Source: Elusimicrobiota bacterium (GTDB taxonomy: Bacteria > Elusimicrobiota > Elusimicrobia > Elusimicrobiales > UBA9959). Taken from it: a stretch of DNA of 23,797 nucleotides. Below the pieces are notes generated by a model, which worked only from the letters and a program-made list of their open reading frames with translations, was not told where the DNA came from and made no database searches. The DNA is taken from positions 1 through 23,797 of the forward strand of contig JBAXKK010000035.1 in assembly GCA_037137395.1 (NCBI GenBank), given 5' to 3'. The position numbers and the translations under genes are program-made. Within the stretch, counting starts at the first letter, position 1. Each line of letters begins with the position of its first letter. Shown here piece after piece: positions 46 through 22,449 of the stretch.

Positions 46-1320
46 TTATTGGAGCAGAAATTTCCAGGCCGGCACGATACTGATCTTTACTCCGTCCATT
101 CTTATCTCTTTTTCTTCATCCAAAGAAATAAGCAGGCCTTTCTTCTGGTTCAACCATTTACAAGCCGCAACCAGGCCGGCCAGTTCACGCTGCTGATTTT
201 GCGGGCCCAGTTCCAGGCACACCTGAATGGGCTTAAGATCTCCATCCTGATTTTTAGCGATAAAATCGCATTCAACTCCCTCGTCAAAATAAAACACTTC
301 CTTGCCGGCTCTTTTCAGCTCCAGGAATACCGCGTTTTCCAGCAGACGCCCCTCGTCAGCGGATGTAACCCTTCTGGAAAGAGCATTATCAACCAGGTAG
401 ATCTTTGAAGGATTACGCATCCGCTTATAAGTGGATTCCGAGAATTTCTTAACCTCAAACACTAGCATACTCTGGATAAAATATTTGTAATAACGGAAAA
501 GCAGGTCCTTTGAAAAAGGGAACTTATCCTGATATTGCTTATAAAATGAGGTAAGGGAATATTTTAAAGCGAAAGACGAGAAAAGCCTGTCGCTAAGCGC
601 TTCGAAAAGGTGTATATTGGAAACTCCATATTTTTCCACCAAATCCCTGAAATACATAGCGCTCATATATTCTTTTACCAGCTTGGATTTTTGAGTGTCG
701 CTATCCAGCTCAGCCACTTCGGGAAAGCCCCCCCAGCGCAAATAGTCCTTAAAGTGTCTTTTCAACGTGCTTTGTGCCCTGCCGTACATTAGGCCGGCGG
801 GCTTTACGCCTTTGGCATTCAGATATTCCTTAAAAGAATAGGGAAGGACCTCCACGCTCCAGGCGCGGCCGCGCAGTTCGGTGGCTATCTCAAAAGGCAT
901 CATCCTAGACGAGGAGCCGCTTACATATACACCGATATTCTCCCGTTCTACTACCCTACGGCAGAATTTCTCCCAGCCTTTAACATTCTGAACCTCATCA
1001 AGAAAGAAAACGGGGTTCTTATCCAGGCAGTTCGGTTTCAACTCAAAAAAAACGTTTTTCAACTTTTCAAAATCGGAGGCTTCAAAGCCGTCAAGACGTT
1101 CATCCTCGAAATCTATATACAGCGCCCGGTCAGAGCACTTTTTATAAAGGTCATAAAGGATATAAGTTTTACCGCTCCTACGCACGCCGTAAACGACAAA
1201 AGCCTTATCCAGATTATCCGGGAAATTCTCTACGGTTCTTTTAACTATTTCTCCGGTATTGGCCAGTATGAATTTCTCGTTCGCGACCAGTATTTCCTTT
1301 AGCACTGCGTTGGTTATCAT
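46..1320 (-). CDS. AAA+ ATP-binding protein (AAA_14 + DUF4143 type)
   Basis: 424 aa; Walker A GVRRSGKT, Walker B FFLDEVQ, SGSSS, YLRWGGFPE, KIYLVDN, LLENAV and C-terminal ECDFI..IQVC (PD-(D/E)xK-like), typical of AAA_14/DUF4143 proteins. Confidence 0.9.
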   Translation of the reverse strand: MITNAVLKEILVANEKFILANTGEIVKRTVENFPDNLDKAFVVYGVRRSGKTYILYDLYKKCSDRALYIDFEDERLDGFEASDFEKLKNVFFELKPNCLDKNPVFFLDEVQNVKGWEKFCRRVVERENIGVYVSGSSSRMMPFEIATELRGRAWSVEVLPYSFKEYLNAKGVKPAGLMYGRAQSTLKRHFKDYLRWGGFPEVAELDSDTQKSKLVKEYMSAMYFRDLVEKYGVSNIHLFEALSDRLFSSFALKYSLTSFYKQYQDKFPFSKDLLFRYYKYFIQSMLVFEVKKFSESTYKRMRNPSKIYLVDNALSRRVTSADEGRLLENAVFLELKRAGKEVFYFDEGVECDFIAKNQDGDLKPIQVCLELGPQNQQRELAGLVAACKWLNQKKGLLISLDEEKEIRMDGVKISIVPAWKFLLQ

Positions 1321-13114: not shown

Positions 13115-14290
13115 TTAATACTTACGCAGGCAGCTTTTCAGCATGTCCAGATCGGATCCGGTAAGCTCCGGGTAATTGCCGAAGTAAAATCCGCATTCGT
13201 GCAGGAATTGGGCGCCCTTCAGATCCCAGTCACCTTTGACATATTTGGCGAAAAAGGGCTGGTGCTGCATATTGCCGGCTATTACAGGACGAATCTCCAC
13301 TCCGTCTCCTGAAAACTGCTCTATGTACTTACTGCGCAGCTCTTTTGTTTTGCATATAACAGGAAAGGCGAAATTGGAGAGAAAAGAAAGATGTCCCCTT
13401 TTTAGCGGGAGGAAATCCGGATTATTCTTGGCCTCCTCCTCCAAAGCGAGATAATTTTTCTGACGTATCACGCAGTTTTCATCAAGGTATTTAAGCTGTG
13501 TCAGACCGAGGAATCCGGTTATCTCGGTGGGCCTGAGATTAAAACCCAGATCGTAGAAAGTGTACTTCGCTTCAAATTCACTTTTTATACCATGCTTTTC
13601 CCTTAATCGGCGCTGCGCCGTAAAATTCAGGTTACGGTCCCAGCCATTAGCGCGGGTAATGCGCAGCATCTCGTCCATTTCGTCGTCATCCGTGCAGGCG
13701 CAGCCGCCCTCAATAGTTGACATATGATGCGCGACAAAGAAAGAGAAGGTTGAAGCCAGACCAAAATTGCCGGTCTTACCTTCCGGTAAAGCCGTGCAAA
13801 GAGATTCGCAGTTATCCTCTATAAGCAGGACGCCGTTTTTTTTGCAGACATCACGGATCGCACCCAGATCGCCTGCAAAACCCAGCGCATTGGTAATAAA
13901 GAACGCGTTCAGCTTTACCTTCTTAAGAGTTTCAGAGAGATTAGCGGCCATACAATTAAGCGTCTGCGCCTCGCAGTCTACCGGAACTGCCTTCATACCC
14001 AGCTGGAGTATCGGCATGACATTCGTGGACCAGGTAAGAGCTGAAAAGCCGACAGTGTCGCCATCCTTAAGCCGGCCAAGGTTCTTAAGGGCCTGAAGAA
14101 GGGCCAGATTGGCGCTGCCGCCGCTGTTAAAAAGCACGCAATACTTCCGCCCTTGCGCCTTGGCAAAGGCCTTTTCAAACTCGGCGCATTTCTCGCCCAT
14201 GCTTAGGATCTTGGCTTTAAGTATAAAATCCACCAGCTCTTTTTTGGTTTCATACTCGTTAAGAAATGTGTTTTTCATTAATGGGATCAT
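13115..14290 (-). CDS. colD: DegT/DnrJ/EryC1/StrS-family PLP enzyme, likely GDP-4-keto-6-deoxy-D-mannose 3-dehydratase (ColD-like)
   Basis: NSGGSANL, IEDNCES, SFFVAHHMSTIEGG (His in place of the Schiff-base Lys, as in ColD), no Fe-S cysteine motif; GGAGG RBS at 14301-14305. Confidence 0.75.
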   Translation of the reverse strand: MIPLMKNTFLNEYETKKELVDFILKAKILSMGEKCAEFEKAFAKAQGRKYCVLFNSGGSANLALLQALKNLGRLKDGDTVGFSALTWSTNVMPILQLGMKAVPVDCEAQTLNCMAANLSETLKKVKLNAFFITNALGFAGDLGAIRDVCKKNGVLLIEDNCESLCTALPEGKTGNFGLASTFSFFVAHHMSTIEGGCACTDDDEMDEMLRITRANGWDRNLNFTAQRRLREKHGIKSEFEAKYTFYDLGFNLRPTEITGFLGLTQLKYLDENCVIRQKNYLALEEEAKNNPDFLPLKRGHLSFLSNFAFPVICKTKELRSKYIEQFSGDGVEIRPVIAGNMQHQPFFAKYVKGDWDLKGAQFLHECGFYFGNYPELTGSDLDMLKSCLRKY

Positions 14291-14314
14291 AATATATTTT
14301 CCTCCGGAAAATAT

Positions 14315-14595
14315 GCCATAGGCTATAAGCTTTAGGCTTTACACTTTACGCTTTACGTTTTCCGCTTTACGATTTAAGCCATAGGCTACAAGCGAATAAC
14401 TACGCCATAAGCTATAGGCTTTAGGCTTTAGGCTTTAGGCTTTAGGCTTTAGGCTTTAGGCTTTAGGCGAATAACTACGCCATAGGCTATAAGCTTTAGG
14501 CCATAAGCAGAATAAAGATCGCTCACTATTTACGCTTTACACTTTACTTTTTCCGCTTCACGCTTTACGCTTTCCGATTGCCGATTTACGCTTTA
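14315..14595. repeat. Modular heptamer tandem-repeat array A
   Basis: Units GCCATAG/GCTATAA/GCTTTAG/GCTTTAC/GTTTTCC; 7 perfect GCTTTAG at 14418-14466; linkers GCGAATAACTAC and GCAGAATAAAGATC; runs into the last codons of the AAA gene. Confidence 0.95.
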
Positions 14596-15722
14596 ACCCC
14601 GCCTATAAAATCTTTGTAATTTTTTGAGGTCACCAGCGAAACTTCCGCGTCAGGATATGCCTGTGAAAACACTTTCGGGATCCTGAATTTTTCTTTTCTC
14701 CATTTTACTTCAAACGCCCACAAATGTCCCCCGCCTTCTTCCAGATAATCTATCTCCTGTTTTTGGGCTGTCCGCCAGAAATACCCTTTTCTATCAAGGG
14801 CAGTATTGGCGAGGAATTTCCGTCTTTCAGATATAACAAAATTTTCCCACAAAGCCCCCACATCCTGGCGCAGATCAAGCGGATTAAGATTGTTTATAAG
14901 AGCGTTGCGGAGCCCGGTATCGTAGAAATAAATTTTACGGAGTTTTTTAAGTTCGTTGCGCAAATTCCTGCTGAACGGCCCCACTCTGAAAATGATAAAC
15001 GCCTTCTCAAGGATCTGAATATAGGACGCCACGGTATTCTTGTCTATCCCCAAAAGGCCGGCCAGCTCATTATAAGACACCTCATTGCCGACCTGGAGCG
15101 CCAAGGCCTGCAGGAGCTTTTCCAGCAGATCCGGGTTTTTTATATTCTGGTATTTAAGAACATCCTTGTACGAATAGCTCCGCGCAAGACTTTTAAGATT
15201 CACCTCGGTATTTTCTTTACCGGCCACTATTTCAGGGTACATGCCATAAATAATACGGCGCTCAAGCAGCCTGTCCATCTCAACTTCCGAATAGAAAGAA
15301 GCTAATTCATGAAAAGAGAATGGATAGAGCAGAAACTCCCTCTTTCTTCCGGTTAAAGGCTCGGCTATTTTGTCTGAAAGCTCAAAAGAGGACGAGCCGG
15401 TGGCAAGGATCTGCGTGGACGGCAGATTGTCGGCTATTATTTTGAGCGTATGGCCGATATTTTTGACCTGCTGGGCCTCGTCAAGAACAATAAACTTTTT
15501 TCCCTTAAAAAAAACTTTAAGCTCTGTAGAAGTCTTGTCTGTCAAAGCGGCACGGATGTCAGGTTCATCGCAATTTAAATACGCTGACTGCCCCGGATGC
15601 TTTTTAAGTATCTCCCGGACCAAAGTAGTCTTACCCACTTGCCGCGCGCCATAAAGTATAAGGACCTTGTTTTTAAAAAGGCTCTTTTCAATACTCGCCT
15701 GTATAGTTCTCTTAATATGCAT
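14586..15722 (-). CDS. AAA+ ATP-binding protein (AAA_14 + DUF4143 type), second copy
   Basis: Walker A GARQVGKT, Walker B VLDEAQ, TGSSS, LTGRK, GMYPE, KIYFYDTG, LWENF, EIDYL..FEVK; ATG at 15722 (MHIKR) preferred over GTG at 15743. Confidence 0.9.
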   Translation of the reverse strand: MHIKRTIQASIEKSLFKNKVLILYGARQVGKTTLVREILKKHPGQSAYLNCDEPDIRAALTDKTSTELKVFFKGKKFIVLDEAQQVKNIGHTLKIIADNLPSTQILATGSSSFELSDKIAEPLTGRKREFLLYPFSFHELASFYSEVEMDRLLERRIIYGMYPEIVAGKENTEVNLKSLARSYSYKDVLKYQNIKNPDLLEKLLQALALQVGNEVSYNELAGLLGIDKNTVASYIQILEKAFIIFRVGPFSRNLRNELKKLRKIYFYDTGLRNALINNLNPLDLRQDVGALWENFVISERRKFLANTALDRKGYFWRTAQKQEIDYLEEGGGHLWAFEVKWRKEKFRIPKVFSQAYPDAEVSLVTSKNYKDFIGGVKA

Positions 15723-15728
15723 GTTTTG

Positions 15729-15784
15729 GGTGAATCCATTCACCTAATATTACATATATTAGGATATTTGGAGGTAAATATCAA
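15729..15784 (-). promoter_or_regulatory. Predicted sigma70 promoter with palindromic operator-like sites upstream of the second AAA gene
   Basis: Minus strand TTGATA (15779-15784), 17 bp spacer, TAATAT (15756-15761); palindromes GGTGAAT-CC-ATTCACC (15729-15744) and CCTAATAT-N5-ATATTAGG (15743-15763). Confidence 0.55.
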
Positions 15785-15787
15785 CAC

Positions 15788-16205
15788 GCCATAAGCCGTT
15801 TGCCATACGCAGAATAACGATCGCCATAGGCTATAAGCTTTAGGCCGTAAGCGAACTACGCCATAAGCTATAAGCTTTAGGCCATAAGCAGAATAAGAAG
15901 CGCTATTTGCCATTAGCCGTTTGCCATTTGCAGAAAAAACTGCCATTCGCCGTTTGCCATATGCCATTCGCAGAATAAAGATCGCTCACTATTTACGCTT
16001 TACGCTTTACGTTTTCCGCTTTACGATTTAAGCCATGCGCAGAATAAGAAGCGCTATTTGCCATTAGCCGTTTGCCATATGCAGAAAAAACTGTCATTCG
16101 CCGTTTGCCATACGCAGAATTGCTTACTATTTACGCTTTACGTTTTCCGCTTTACGATTTAGGCCATTTGCAGAATTGCTTACTATTTACGCTTTACGTT
16201 ATTTT
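15788..16205. repeat. Modular heptamer tandem-repeat array B
   Basis: Blocks of 3-6 heptamers (GCCATAA, GCCGTTT, GCCATTT, GCTATAA, GCTTTAG, GCTTTAC) separated by GCAGAA(T/A).. linkers; internal 74-bp and 31-bp duplications. Confidence 0.95.
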
Positions 16206-17141
16206 CTAATCCTTTAAGCCTTTAAAAAACTCATACGCTTTGGCTATTCCCTCTTTCAGGGTGGTTTTCGGCTGCCAGCCCCAGGCGGTCTGGCGGGTCG
16301 TATCTATCAGCTTCTGCTTCATGCCGGCCGGTTTGGACAGGTCATGAGTGAAGGCGCCCTTGTAGCCCACAACTTCAGCCACGGTCAGGTAATAGTCGTT
16401 AACTGAATTATCAAGCCCCAGGCCAACATTCATCAGAGCCGGCAGGGTGTCAAAATCAGTTATGGTCCGGTGGATACAGTCGGCGATATCTCCGGCGTAC
16501 ATAAATTCCCTCCGGGCCAGTCCGTCGCCCCAGATCTCCACCGTTTTTTCCTTGTTCAGCTTGGCGAGATGGAGTTTGCGTATGACCGCCGGTATCATGT
16601 GTGAATTTTCAGGCGCGAACTTATCCCAACGGCCATAGAGGTTGCAGGGGATAAGAGTCTTATAGCGGAACTCGGGAGCCTCTTTTGAAATATAGGCGGC
16701 CAGCCTTGATACGACGGTCTTTGCAAGGGCGTAGCCTTCGTTGGTAGGTTCAAATTCGCCCTGCAGGACCATTTCCTCTTTAAGGGGATTGGGCGCGTTG
16801 CGCGGATACATGCAGGAACTGCCGAGATTTATAAACTTCTTTACGCCGCAGTTGCAGGCGGCCCAGACCGTATTACGGCCCATATCCAGATTCTCCAGCA
16901 GAAAGGCCACGGGGTGGGCCATATTGGCCTGTATACCGCCCACGCGGCCGGCTGCGTGGATAACGATGTCAGGCTTGATCCTGGCTATATAAGCCCTGAC
17001 GGCGTTATAGTCAAAAAGATTCAATTCCGGGATATCCGGCGAGAAGATCTCAAGTTTCGAGGCCGCGGGATGTTCCAGGATATTATGTCCGACCATTCCC
17101 GAACCGCCGGTTAAAAACACGCGGAGTTTGTTGTTTGTCAT
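16206..17141 (-). CDS. colC: GDP-L-fucose synthase family protein, likely GDP-colitose synthase (ColC-like)
   Basis: TGGSGMVG, AAGRVGGIQAN, LGSSCMYP, EPTNEGYALAK, IWGDG..RREF; nearest sugar gene downstream is the ColD-like enzyme. Confidence 0.75.
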   Translation of the reverse strand: MTNNKLRVFLTGGSGMVGHNILEHPAASKLEIFSPDIPELNLFDYNAVRAYIARIKPDIVIHAAGRVGGIQANMAHPVAFLLENLDMGRNTVWAACNCGVKKFINLGSSCMYPRNAPNPLKEEMVLQGEFEPTNEGYALAKTVVSRLAAYISKEAPEFRYKTLIPCNLYGRWDKFAPENSHMIPAVIRKLHLAKLNKEKTVEIWGDGLARREFMYAGDIADCIHRTITDFDTLPALMNVGLGLDNSVNDYYLTVAEVVGYKGAFTHDLSKPAGMKQKLIDTTRQTAWGWQPKTTLKEGIAKAYEFFKGLKD

Positions 17142-20958: not shown

Positions 20959-22449
20959 TTACCGGCGATCAAAAAAAGATTTAAAGCTATCCGAGATATA
21001 CTTCAGCATTTCTCCGGTCATACCGGGGTAGACGCCTATCCAGAAGGTGTCGCGCATGATCTGGTCGGTGACGGGCAGTGAAGAGGCAAAGCGATTTAGA
21101 GGCAAGGACGCATGGCCTACGACGCGAAAGCCTTTGCCGGAGCGGCGCATTTCGTCGAAGCAGGGGTGCTTTATAAGGTTACCGGCGAACAGCACGCGGG
21201 TCTGTATTTTATTGGCCTCAAGATGGCTGACCAGATCTTCGCGGGTAAAGCCGGCGTTTGCCTTGACCGTCAGCAGGAAGCCGAACCAGCTTGGGTCGGA
21301 ATTATCGGCGGGCTCGGGCAGTATAAGCTTGTCCGAAAAAGCGTTAAGGGCTTTGCGCAGGTATTGCCAGTTCTTTTTTCTGGCCTCTATGAATTTGGGA
21401 AGCTTCTCAAGCTGGGCCAGGCCGACGGCCGCCTGCATCTCGGTGGCTTTGAGGTTATAACCGAAATGGGAGTAAACATACTTATGGTCGTAGCCCAAAG
21501 GAAGTTCGCCGAACTGCCGGGTGAATCTCTTACCGCAAGTGTTATCTTTGCCGGAAGGACACCAGCAGTCGCGTCCCCAGTCACGAAAAGAATCCACAAG
21601 CCTTTTAAGCTGGGGGTTATTAGTATAGACCGCCCCGCCCTCGCCCATGGTCATATGGTGAGGCGGATAGAAGCTGGAAGTGCCGATATCGCCGAAGGTT
21701 CCGGTGTATTGTAGAGGTTTAGCAGCCTGGAGGCAAAGCCGTTTAGCGGGATGGCCCCCTGTACCCAAGCTGCCTTGCATCCTAATCGCTTTGCATCCAA
21801 GCTGCTTTGCCTCTAAATCGCTTTGCATCCTGTACCGACTGCCCAGAGCGTCGCAGTTATCCTCAATTAGCCAAAGGTTATGTTTGTCGCAGAAAGCACG
21901 GACTGCTTTCAGGTCGAAGGGGTTGCCCAAAGTATGAGCCACCATTACGGCCTTGGTCTTTTTTGAAAGAGCTTTTTTCAGCAGGGAACAGTTGATATTA
22001 TAGGATGGCAATTCAACATCCACGAATACGGGGACCGCGCCATACTGGATTATAGGCGTAACAGTGGTAGGAAAGCCGGCGGCTACGGTTATAACTTCAT
22101 CACCGGGCTTTATGCGCTTTGCGCCAAGTTTTGGGGAAGTCAGGGCCATGAAAGCCAGAAGATTGGCCGAGGAGCCGGAATTTACCAGAGAAACATGCCT
22201 GACGCCAAGGAATTCACCGAACTTTTTCTCGAAAGCGTCAACATAGGGGCCGGAAGTAAGCCAGAAATCAAGGGCGGAATCGACAAGATTGCACAATTCT
22301 TTCCCGTCGTATATCCTGCCGCCGTAAGAGACAAAAGATTTGCCGGGCTCAAAGTCCTTTTTTTTATGGAAAAGGCGATGGTACTCCGAAACCTTACGGA
22401 GTATCTCTTTGCGCATTTTTTTATCGGTTTCAGCAGTTTTGAGGCTCAT
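20959..22449 (-). CDS. rfbH: CDP-4-keto-6-deoxy-D-glucose 3-dehydrase (RfbH/DdhC) carrying two in-frame repeat insertions
   Basis: LDFWLTSG, NSGSSANL, AHTLGNPF, SFYPPHHMTMGEGG, Fe-S motif GRDCWCPSGKDNTC, YDHKY, TFWIGVYPG. Confidence 0.93.
   Translation of the reverse strand: MSLKTAETDKKMRKEILRKVSEYHRLFHKKKDFEPGKSFVSYGGRIYDGKELCNLVDSALDFWLTSGPYVDAFEKKFGEFLGVRHVSLVNSGSSANLLAFMALTSPKLGAKRIKPGDEVITVAAGFPTTVTPIIQYGAVPVFVDVELPSYNINCSLLKKALSKKTKAVMVAHTLGNPFDLKAVRAFCDKHNLWLIEDNCDALGSRYRMQSDLEAKQLGCKAIRMQGSLGTGGHPAKRLCLQAAKPLQYTGTFGDIGTSSFYPPHHMTMGEGGAVYTNNPQLKRLVDSFRDWGRDCWCPSGKDNTCGKRFTRQFGELPLGYDHKYVYSHFGYNLKATEMQAAVGLAQLEKLPKFIEARKKNWQYLRKALNAFSDKLILPEPADNSDPSWFGFLLTVKANAGFTREDLVSHLEANKIQTRVLFAGNLIKHPCFDEMRRSGKGFRVVGHASLPLNRFASSLPVTDQIMRDTFWIGVYPGMTGEMLKYISDSFKSFFDRR
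21084..21107. repeat. Three octamer units inserted in frame near the rfbH 3' end
   Basis: AGGCAAAG CGATTTAG AGGCAAGG; 22/24 match to the reverse complement of 21805-21828. Confidence 0.8.
21715..21828. repeat. In-frame octamer-repeat element with inverted arms inside rfbH
   Basis: Right arm of 8 octamers at 21765-21828 (CCAAGCTG CCTTGCAT CCTAATCG CTTTGCAT CCAAGCTG CTTTGCCT CTAAATCG CTTTGCAT); left arm of 4 inverted units at 21715-21746. Confidence 0.88.

Follow-up and report, generated by a model that had tools for sequence, protein, structure and literature searches.

A candidate defence ATPase gene inserted at a colC-colD junction of an Elusimicrobiota bacterium, between arrays of a dispersed and fast-changing heptamer repeat

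Integrons depend on a dedicated integrase and on attC hairpin recombination sites. Insertion with long target duplication has been described for restriction-modification genes, and in the available text of that study 'chance insertions between repeated sequences' are set apart as a separate class (Furuta et al., 2010, PMC2853133). Dispersed heptameric repeats are known from Xanthomonas and Nostoc and, according to the accessible part of the source, those of Xanthomonas are linked to stable loci (Rehm et al., 2015, PMC4692102). PDC-S01, a one-gene system whose ATPase carries a fused PD-(D/E)XK-type domain, is listed among candidate defence systems of which most still await validation, as the available portion of the publication has it (PMC12988326), and the accessible part of one preprint does no more than mention a DUF4143-related nuclease. 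No account of heptamer arrays as cassette sites, or of PDC-S01 mobility, was found in open-licence text.

The window analyzed here, which is the whole 23,797-nt contig JBAXKK010000035.1 (C35) of the Elusimicrobiota bacterium GCA_037137395.1 (G000), carries a nucleotide-sugar and glycosyltransferase cluster on its minus strand. Within this cluster a PDC-S01 gene for an AAA_14 plus DUF4143 ATPase-nuclease (14586-15722, minus strand; 378 amino acids from the ATG; Pfam and PADLOC) lies between a colC-like gene on its upstream side (16206-17141, minus strand) and a colD-like gene on its downstream side (13115-14290, minus strand). The match to the PADLOC profile of PDC-S01 is close to complete (residues 8-380 on profile positions 1-373 of 375, E 5e-157). 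The names that the initial annotation gave to the neighboring genes fit: the top PDB matches of the 13115-14290 product, a DegT-family (Pfam DegT) PLP dehydratase, are ColD/WbdK (E 2e-59), and it has His-His at the PLP site, His standing in place of Lys in ColD. The upstream gene encodes an fcl-type epimerase/reductase, GDP-fucose-synthase-like with a score under the NCBIfam Fcl cut-off, for which its adjacency to colD suggests the name ColC. Also in agreement with that annotation, no transposase or integrase family was found by Pfam among the 18 ORFs of the window that were scanned. A second PDC-S01 gene (46-1320, minus strand) stands at the far end of this cluster and has no array upstream, and the rfbH-like gene contains two in-frame tracts of 16-nt period (21083-21115 and 21760-21830), which are mutually inverted.

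The ATPase gene, which has a GC content of 44% (versus 52% for the genome), is by its sequence a common candidate anti-phage gene with a predicted defence function. It is preceded by a sigma-70-like promoter, TTGATA-N17-TAATAT (15756-15784, minus strand), matching the consensus at 9/12 positions, sites of that quality numbering 8 in the region against 3.5 in shuffles. Two palindromes at 15729-15763, GGTGAA-N4-TTCACC and CCTAATAT-N5-ATATTAGG, are probably a putative operator for self-repression; comparable TTCAC/GGTGAA motifs are found upstream of the homologues L321-L324.

The gene and its promoter are bracketed, as had been noted, by two heptamer arrays of the same orientation, which a recheck of coordinates and strands bore out. 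Array A (14315-14596, approximate) is a composite of the units GCTTTAG, GCTTTAC and GCCATAG, and its end lies 9 bases from GGAGG (14301-14305, minus strand), which serves the colD-like gene as ribosome-binding site and recurs in several short empty spacers of other alleles. Array B (15788-16199, approximate), in which heptamer units and GCAGAA anchors form higher-order modules repeated in tandem, abuts the colC-like stop codon at a distance of 6 bases. The direct repeats reported between the two arrays (39/39, 42/43 and 34/34 bp), arranged in a different order in A and in B, were reconfirmed exactly. Not all of these blocks are exclusive to the two arrays. The 39-mer has exact copies only at A and B, with copies at up to 2 mismatches on contigs C75 and C126, and exact outside copies exist of the 43-mer of array B (on C75) and of the 34-mer (on C126). 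Array B has up to 57 exact bases in common with arrays on other contigs, which is more than the 39 it has in common with array A, and 12 of the 265 other period-7 hits share at least 39 (at most 57) exact bases with A or B, several of these belonging to one composite array. A and B were rejected as hairpins or attC sites because their folding is no better than that of shuffled sequences (30 each; z +1.5 and +1.3). A third array stands at the end of the contig (23704-23797), with 98% identity over 80 nt to part of array A, and an array is also present at the equivalent junction of the closest relative, G001.

Comparison of the colC-colD junction across relatives drew on 58 candidate loci, which, with 17 duplicates, 3 loci lacking colC and 1 lacking colD left out, gave 37 distinct alleles. 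In 25 of these colC and colD overlap by 4 bp, and in 8 a spacer of 27-104 bp separates them; the ATPase gene is present in 3, and 1 (L023) holds a GT87 gene, the sole other cargo at the junction. The three ATPase alleles, i.e., the window, L018 (the corresponding stretch of G001) and L098, form one clade on the colC plus colD tree (FastTree support 1.0). Since 25 of the 37 alleles overlap and the three carriers are a single clade, the ATPase gene is an insertion that took place once, in the ancestor of G000 and two close relatives, between colC and colD genes that are normally coupled. The promoter is kept in L018 and L098 and marks the left edge of the cassette in all three alleles.

Across these three lineages the cargo stays put, with 98% identity among the ATPases, and it is the arrays that are rebuilt or replaced. 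The length of array A is 282, 90 and 216 nt; array B is 412 and 261 nt long in two alleles and absent from L098, in which a REP-like palindrome, the same as that found at many G000 sites, takes its place. L098 also keeps an extra TTCACC upstream of the promoter, and no direct repeat flanks its ATPase gene (score 8). The stop codon of the ATPase gene (14586-14588) lies within array A, and in all three alleles the stop is supplied by the array right after the natural C-terminus, close homologues ending in FIG/FIGG. Empty alleles, which the initial annotation had proposed to look for in relatives, were found, and with array-like sequence: the sister of the ATPase clade, L019 (the nearest empty allele, its colD 92% identical), has a spacer with a heptamer-like run and a remnant of an array-B module, which aligns weakly to the arrays (scores 9-12), and L031 and L113 have short arrays of other units. 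The expected variety of cargo at the same arrays did not materialize, as 3 of the 4 filled alleles hold the same gene and the fourth, with GT87, is free of arrays. The last codons of the colC-like gene (window 16206-16230, compared with L018, L019, L031 and L098) are of two types, LQHA.. and KGLE/K.., which are discordant with the tree, the KGLE/K.. type having the look of a heptamer-like run turned into coding sequence.

On balance we lean towards insertion with target duplication into an array-bearing colC-colD junction, followed by turnover of the arrays, as the somewhat probable origin of this arrangement. In the course of events that we infer, as regards the duplication, the order of the steps and their mechanism, the junction would already have held a short array before the ATPase gene arrived. 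A solitary PDC-S01 gene with its own promoter was then inserted once between colC and colD, and the insertion would have duplicated the resident array, as members of the PDC-S01 family often duplicate the sequence in which they land. The two array copies, which demonstrably changed, may have grown by slippage and acquired modules that further arrays also contain, and one of them was replaced in a single lineage, all by processes that would be of the same kind as those acting on arrays elsewhere in the genome. The arrays would on this account be a passive target and a by-product of insertion, and neither a site-specific recombinase nor an ordered exchange of cassettes would be required. The restriction of exact 39-mer copies to A and B, the array-supplied stop in all three alleles and the remnant in the sister allele L019 argue for the duplication, and the shuffled order of the matching blocks, the closer resemblance of array B to arrays on other contigs than to A, and the weak L019 alignment argue against it, as does the absence of any unique non-array sequence duplicated on both sides.

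Further evidence, on both sides, comes from relatives of the ATPase. G000 encodes 16 PDC-S01 paralogues, of which 2 are bracketed by arrays according to the strict detector and 14 are not, and none of 11 further homologues, from a search of 401 genomes, is bracketed by heptamer arrays; several of these 11 are placed at other sugar-pathway junctions and possess a promoter and palindrome of their own. Three of the 11 lie between direct repeats of a different kind (71, 39 and 38 bp for L322, L325 and L327, with the 3' end of the upstream gene duplicated in L322), and the paralogue on C126 has a flanking direct repeat of 32 bp; the genome-wide rate at the same score is 22 of 1971 genes. On the opposite side, 8 of the 11 homologues and 10 of the 12 scorable paralogues have no flanking repeat at a score of at least 25. 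The cleanest case of insertion into an array is a 493-aa AAA gene on C8 (L331, G000:C8:16626-18107), which is situated within one arm of a heptamer hairpin beside a tRNA-like sequence and is flanked by exact 33-bp direct repeats, and this 33-bp duplication likewise counts in favor of the duplication reading. The hairpin is empty in G001 (L264), where a single repeat copy can be recognized at the level of the repeat family only.

A less probable, yet live, alternative is that the gene was inserted without any help from arrays, which later colonized the two new junctions, non-coding junctions of glycan loci being attractive to them. It remains a live rival because of L098, where another repeat family occupies the 5' side and the additional TTCACC precedes the promoter; since this allele is without any direct repeat, its state could be the ancestral one, which also counts against target duplication. 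Insertion of the C27 paralogue took place without arrays, and arrays bracket 33 of the 1957 internal genes of this genome, roughly double the chance expectation of 16, most of these genes being resident. Against later colonization, the ATPase has no stop codon of its own and ends within an array in all three alleles, the exact 39-mer is private to A and B, and the empty sister allele L019 already possesses heptamer-like sequence.

The wider setting of both readings is the distribution of the heptamers. The genome contains 271 period-7 hits, compared with 50 of period 8, 148 of period 14 and 2-16 each for periods 4, 5, 6, 9, 10, 11 and 13. These hits are largely intergenic (246/271), and arrays are found at 194 of 2120 junctions, 174 of the 194 being co-directional (174 of 1749 co-directional junctions versus 6 of 184 divergent ones). 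Among 30 of the 33 bracketed genes that were scanned, 24 belong to resident families (NuoD/E/F/L, RlmN, RelA, PtsI, Mur ligase, NAD kinase, ExbD, TonB, microcompartment and glycan enzymes), 2 are PDC-S01, 1 is S23p and 3 have no Pfam match, and the tie between arrays and cargo genes for which a mapping of all arrays had been proposed is thus not borne out: the arrays are placed largely regardless of cargo. Degenerate heptamer repeats form a dispersed family in this genome; they settle in junctions and change fast in place, and, as arrays are present at 194 of 2120 junctions and mostly around resident genes, they do not have the look of a dedicated gene-swapping system. The S23p gene, for a four-helix bundle, lies between inverted heptamer arms (L195:2504-2851 on G000:C76, and L277 in G001) and is kept in both genomes. 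S23p was considered as a local driver and rejected, as the only gene above the Pfam cut-off genome-wide is on a different contig. A weak Avd/S23p-like gene on C52 (13584-13994) is flanked by a 110-nt direct repeat pair with one AAC-rich copy, an arrangement resembling the pair of template and variable repeats in a diversity-generating retroelement.

On C75, C49 and C17, long composite arrays are concentrated next to genes of the PDC-S01, AbiE and nucleotidyltransferase-HEPN types. On C75 (L194), C49 (L192) and C126 (L333), strings of AbiE, nucleotidyltransferase-HEPN, PDC-S27-like and PDC-S01 genes are interspersed among glycosyltransferases and parted by long composite arrays and other short repeats; on C75 an array leads, twice, straight into a TATAAT box ahead of cargo. 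A tentative proposal, which we regard as doubtful, is that a feedback loop without a recombinase operates in the glycan loci: PDC-S01, AbiE and nucleotidyltransferase-HEPN genes would insert into heptamer arrays with long target duplication, their gain and loss would leave tandem modules, and the longer arrays would offer more homology to the next arrival. If so, past cassette traffic would be preserved, fossil-like, in the composite arrays that are longest in this genome, and the arrays would direct defence genes into surface-polysaccharide operons while leaving these operons intact. Such a loop would explain a pile-up of defence genes in surface-polysaccharide operons that is free of integrases and would give the degenerate heptamers a testable role.

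The more ambitious proposal of the initial annotation, in which the arrays are dedicated landing pads for repeated entry and exit of cargo in polysaccharide loci, integron-like without attC sites, appears improbable to us. In its favor are the rank of A and B, first and third in array coverage among the junctions of the genome, the location of the longest arrays on contigs with PDC-S01, AbiE and nucleotidyltransferase-HEPN genes, and the frequency of arrays at junctions beside PDC-S01 genes (8/24 versus 262/2096; odds ratio 2.7, p 0.04, for gaps of at least 40 and cases that are not independent). The same cargo in all three array-bearing filled alleles, with the alternative GT87 gene lacking arrays, argues against it, as does the absence of a recombinase from the window. 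A more general test is provided by the comparison with G001, which is limited to one genome pair, 1.51 Mb of about 2.6 Mb and an ORF caller of our own (1041 orthologues, median identity 94.8%). Gene-sized indels touch an array in 6 of 32 cases, compared with 144 of 826 conserved junctions (sensitive detector), i.e., there is no enrichment, and only 9 of 151 G001 genes absent from G000 adjoin an array, compared with 156 of 869 shared genes (odds ratio 0.29, sensitive detector; 3/151 versus 101/869 with the strict detector). Accessory genes are depleted next to arrays, and the view of arrays as general entry and exit sites fails on both counts. However, the cargo-rich contigs C75, C49, C126 and C110 have no counterpart in the compared part of G001 and so fall outside the indel test, which leaves the landing-pad proposal some room.

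The performance of the two detectors bears on these numbers. The strict period-7 detector finds 0 of the 32 indels bracketed and misses the left array at C8; with the sensitive, vocabulary-based detector, which gives false hits in 18 of 1642 coding pieces, C8 and C28 come out bracketed, the unit types at C28 differing between its two sides and no direct repeat being present. Some of the 32 indels may be gene-calling artefacts, and the one at C91 is a reading-frame difference rather than an insertion. At conserved junctions, arrays vary in length, occur in one genome only or swap their unit type, a swap of unit families at the same junction being confirmed by eye for C21, C74 and C84; typing of units by regular expression is crude, as only C21 and C74 proved true among the 7 of 41 pairs flagged, and C84 was found separately.

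A further point raised in support of transfer between arrays is the low synonymous divergence of the ATPase gene from that of G001 (17 of 156 fourfold sites, the genome median being 0.218, which places it among 899 genes between the 1st and 5th percentile). This was dropped as proof of array-bounded transfer because the tract of low divergence between L018 and L098 starts and stops within the ATPase coding sequence, and colD too is a mosaic, as expected of ordinary homologous recombination. What stands of the claim that the arrays are recombination sites for cargo is its local part, namely one insertion at this junction, empty alleles with arrays and the C8 case; it does not hold as a genome-wide system.

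That the arrays or their junctions are assembly artefacts, a suspicion that could be raised by the near-copy of part of array A at the contig end and by the fact that none of the listed contigs from the sequencing run X1 covers the full stretch, the link from array A to colD being unbridged, is very improbable, given that the gene order recurs in two independent records, L018 and L098, each with arrays of its own, and that one X1 contig (X1 may be the source sample) runs free of differences from inside A through the ATPase gene into B (14511-15838). The uncertainty is limited to the unit counts inside the arrays. Four sequencing runs were compared, all as contigs; depth in X1 over colD, the ATPase gene and colC (9.1, 10.1 and 11.9) gives no copy number, and joints that skip the ATPase gene have sides of 24-39 letters within array sequence, mostly with other letters between them, and are other array copies, therefore uninformative on excision.

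Compared with integrons, the locus is alike in holding an accessory gene between repeats, as are the strings of defence and toxin-antitoxin-like genes between the C75 arrays, but differs in the absence of an integrase from the window and of an attC-like hairpin, in a cassette that brings its own promoter and in repeats that bracket core genes too. The 18 scanned ORFs of the window, which include no recombinase, the folding of the arrays, the bracketed core genes and the lack of cargo variety at the same sites all speak against the integron-like behavior first suggested. The arrays resemble the heptameric repeats of Xanthomonas and Nostoc: as in the available description of these (Rehm et al., 2015, PMC4692102), the period is 7, the repeats are intergenic, co-directional junctions are preferred, length varies between relatives, loci are conserved rather than unstable and no tie to mobile elements is seen. 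With their period, their intergenic and co-directional placement, their length variation and their independence from gene gain and loss, the arrays of this genome belong among dispersed heptameric intergenic repeats. In contrast to the Xanthomonas and Nostoc repeats as described in that text, several unit families coexist in one genome and are swapped at the same junction, the units are not of the GGG-rich G4 type, and A and B, which are composite and direct, show no more folding than shuffled sequences do.

As for the gene, the protein shows no difference from PADLOC PDC-S01, an AAA_14 plus DUF4143 single gene, and paralogues of it are numerous within this one genome. Its setting recalls insertion with long target duplication, as set out in the accessible text of Furuta et al. 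(2010, PMC2853133), in which a defence-type gene likewise lies between direct repeats of more than 30 bp, with no mobility gene and with empty alleles in relatives; here the repeats are 39, 43 and 34 bp, the insert is about 1.2 kb (below 20 kb) and a mobility gene is absent. The locus departs from that class, as the available text presents it, in two respects: it involves a single PDC-S01 gene rather than a restriction and modification pair, so that it works alike without being a restriction-modification member, and the repeated sequence, instead of being a unique target, is an array of a dispersed and fast-changing kind, for which reason a collinear duplication is not demonstrable. The class of chance insertions between repeats that the same source distinguishes also fits the ATPase locus. 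Both ingredients, dispersed heptamer repeats and insertion of PDC-S01-type genes with direct repeats, are of known kinds, and the case is another instance of a very common candidate defence gene between direct repeats, in a genome full of fast-changing heptamers. Its value lies in an allele series in which the cargo is fixed and the repeats change, and in a two-genome test that speaks against such repeats as general sites of gene exchange.
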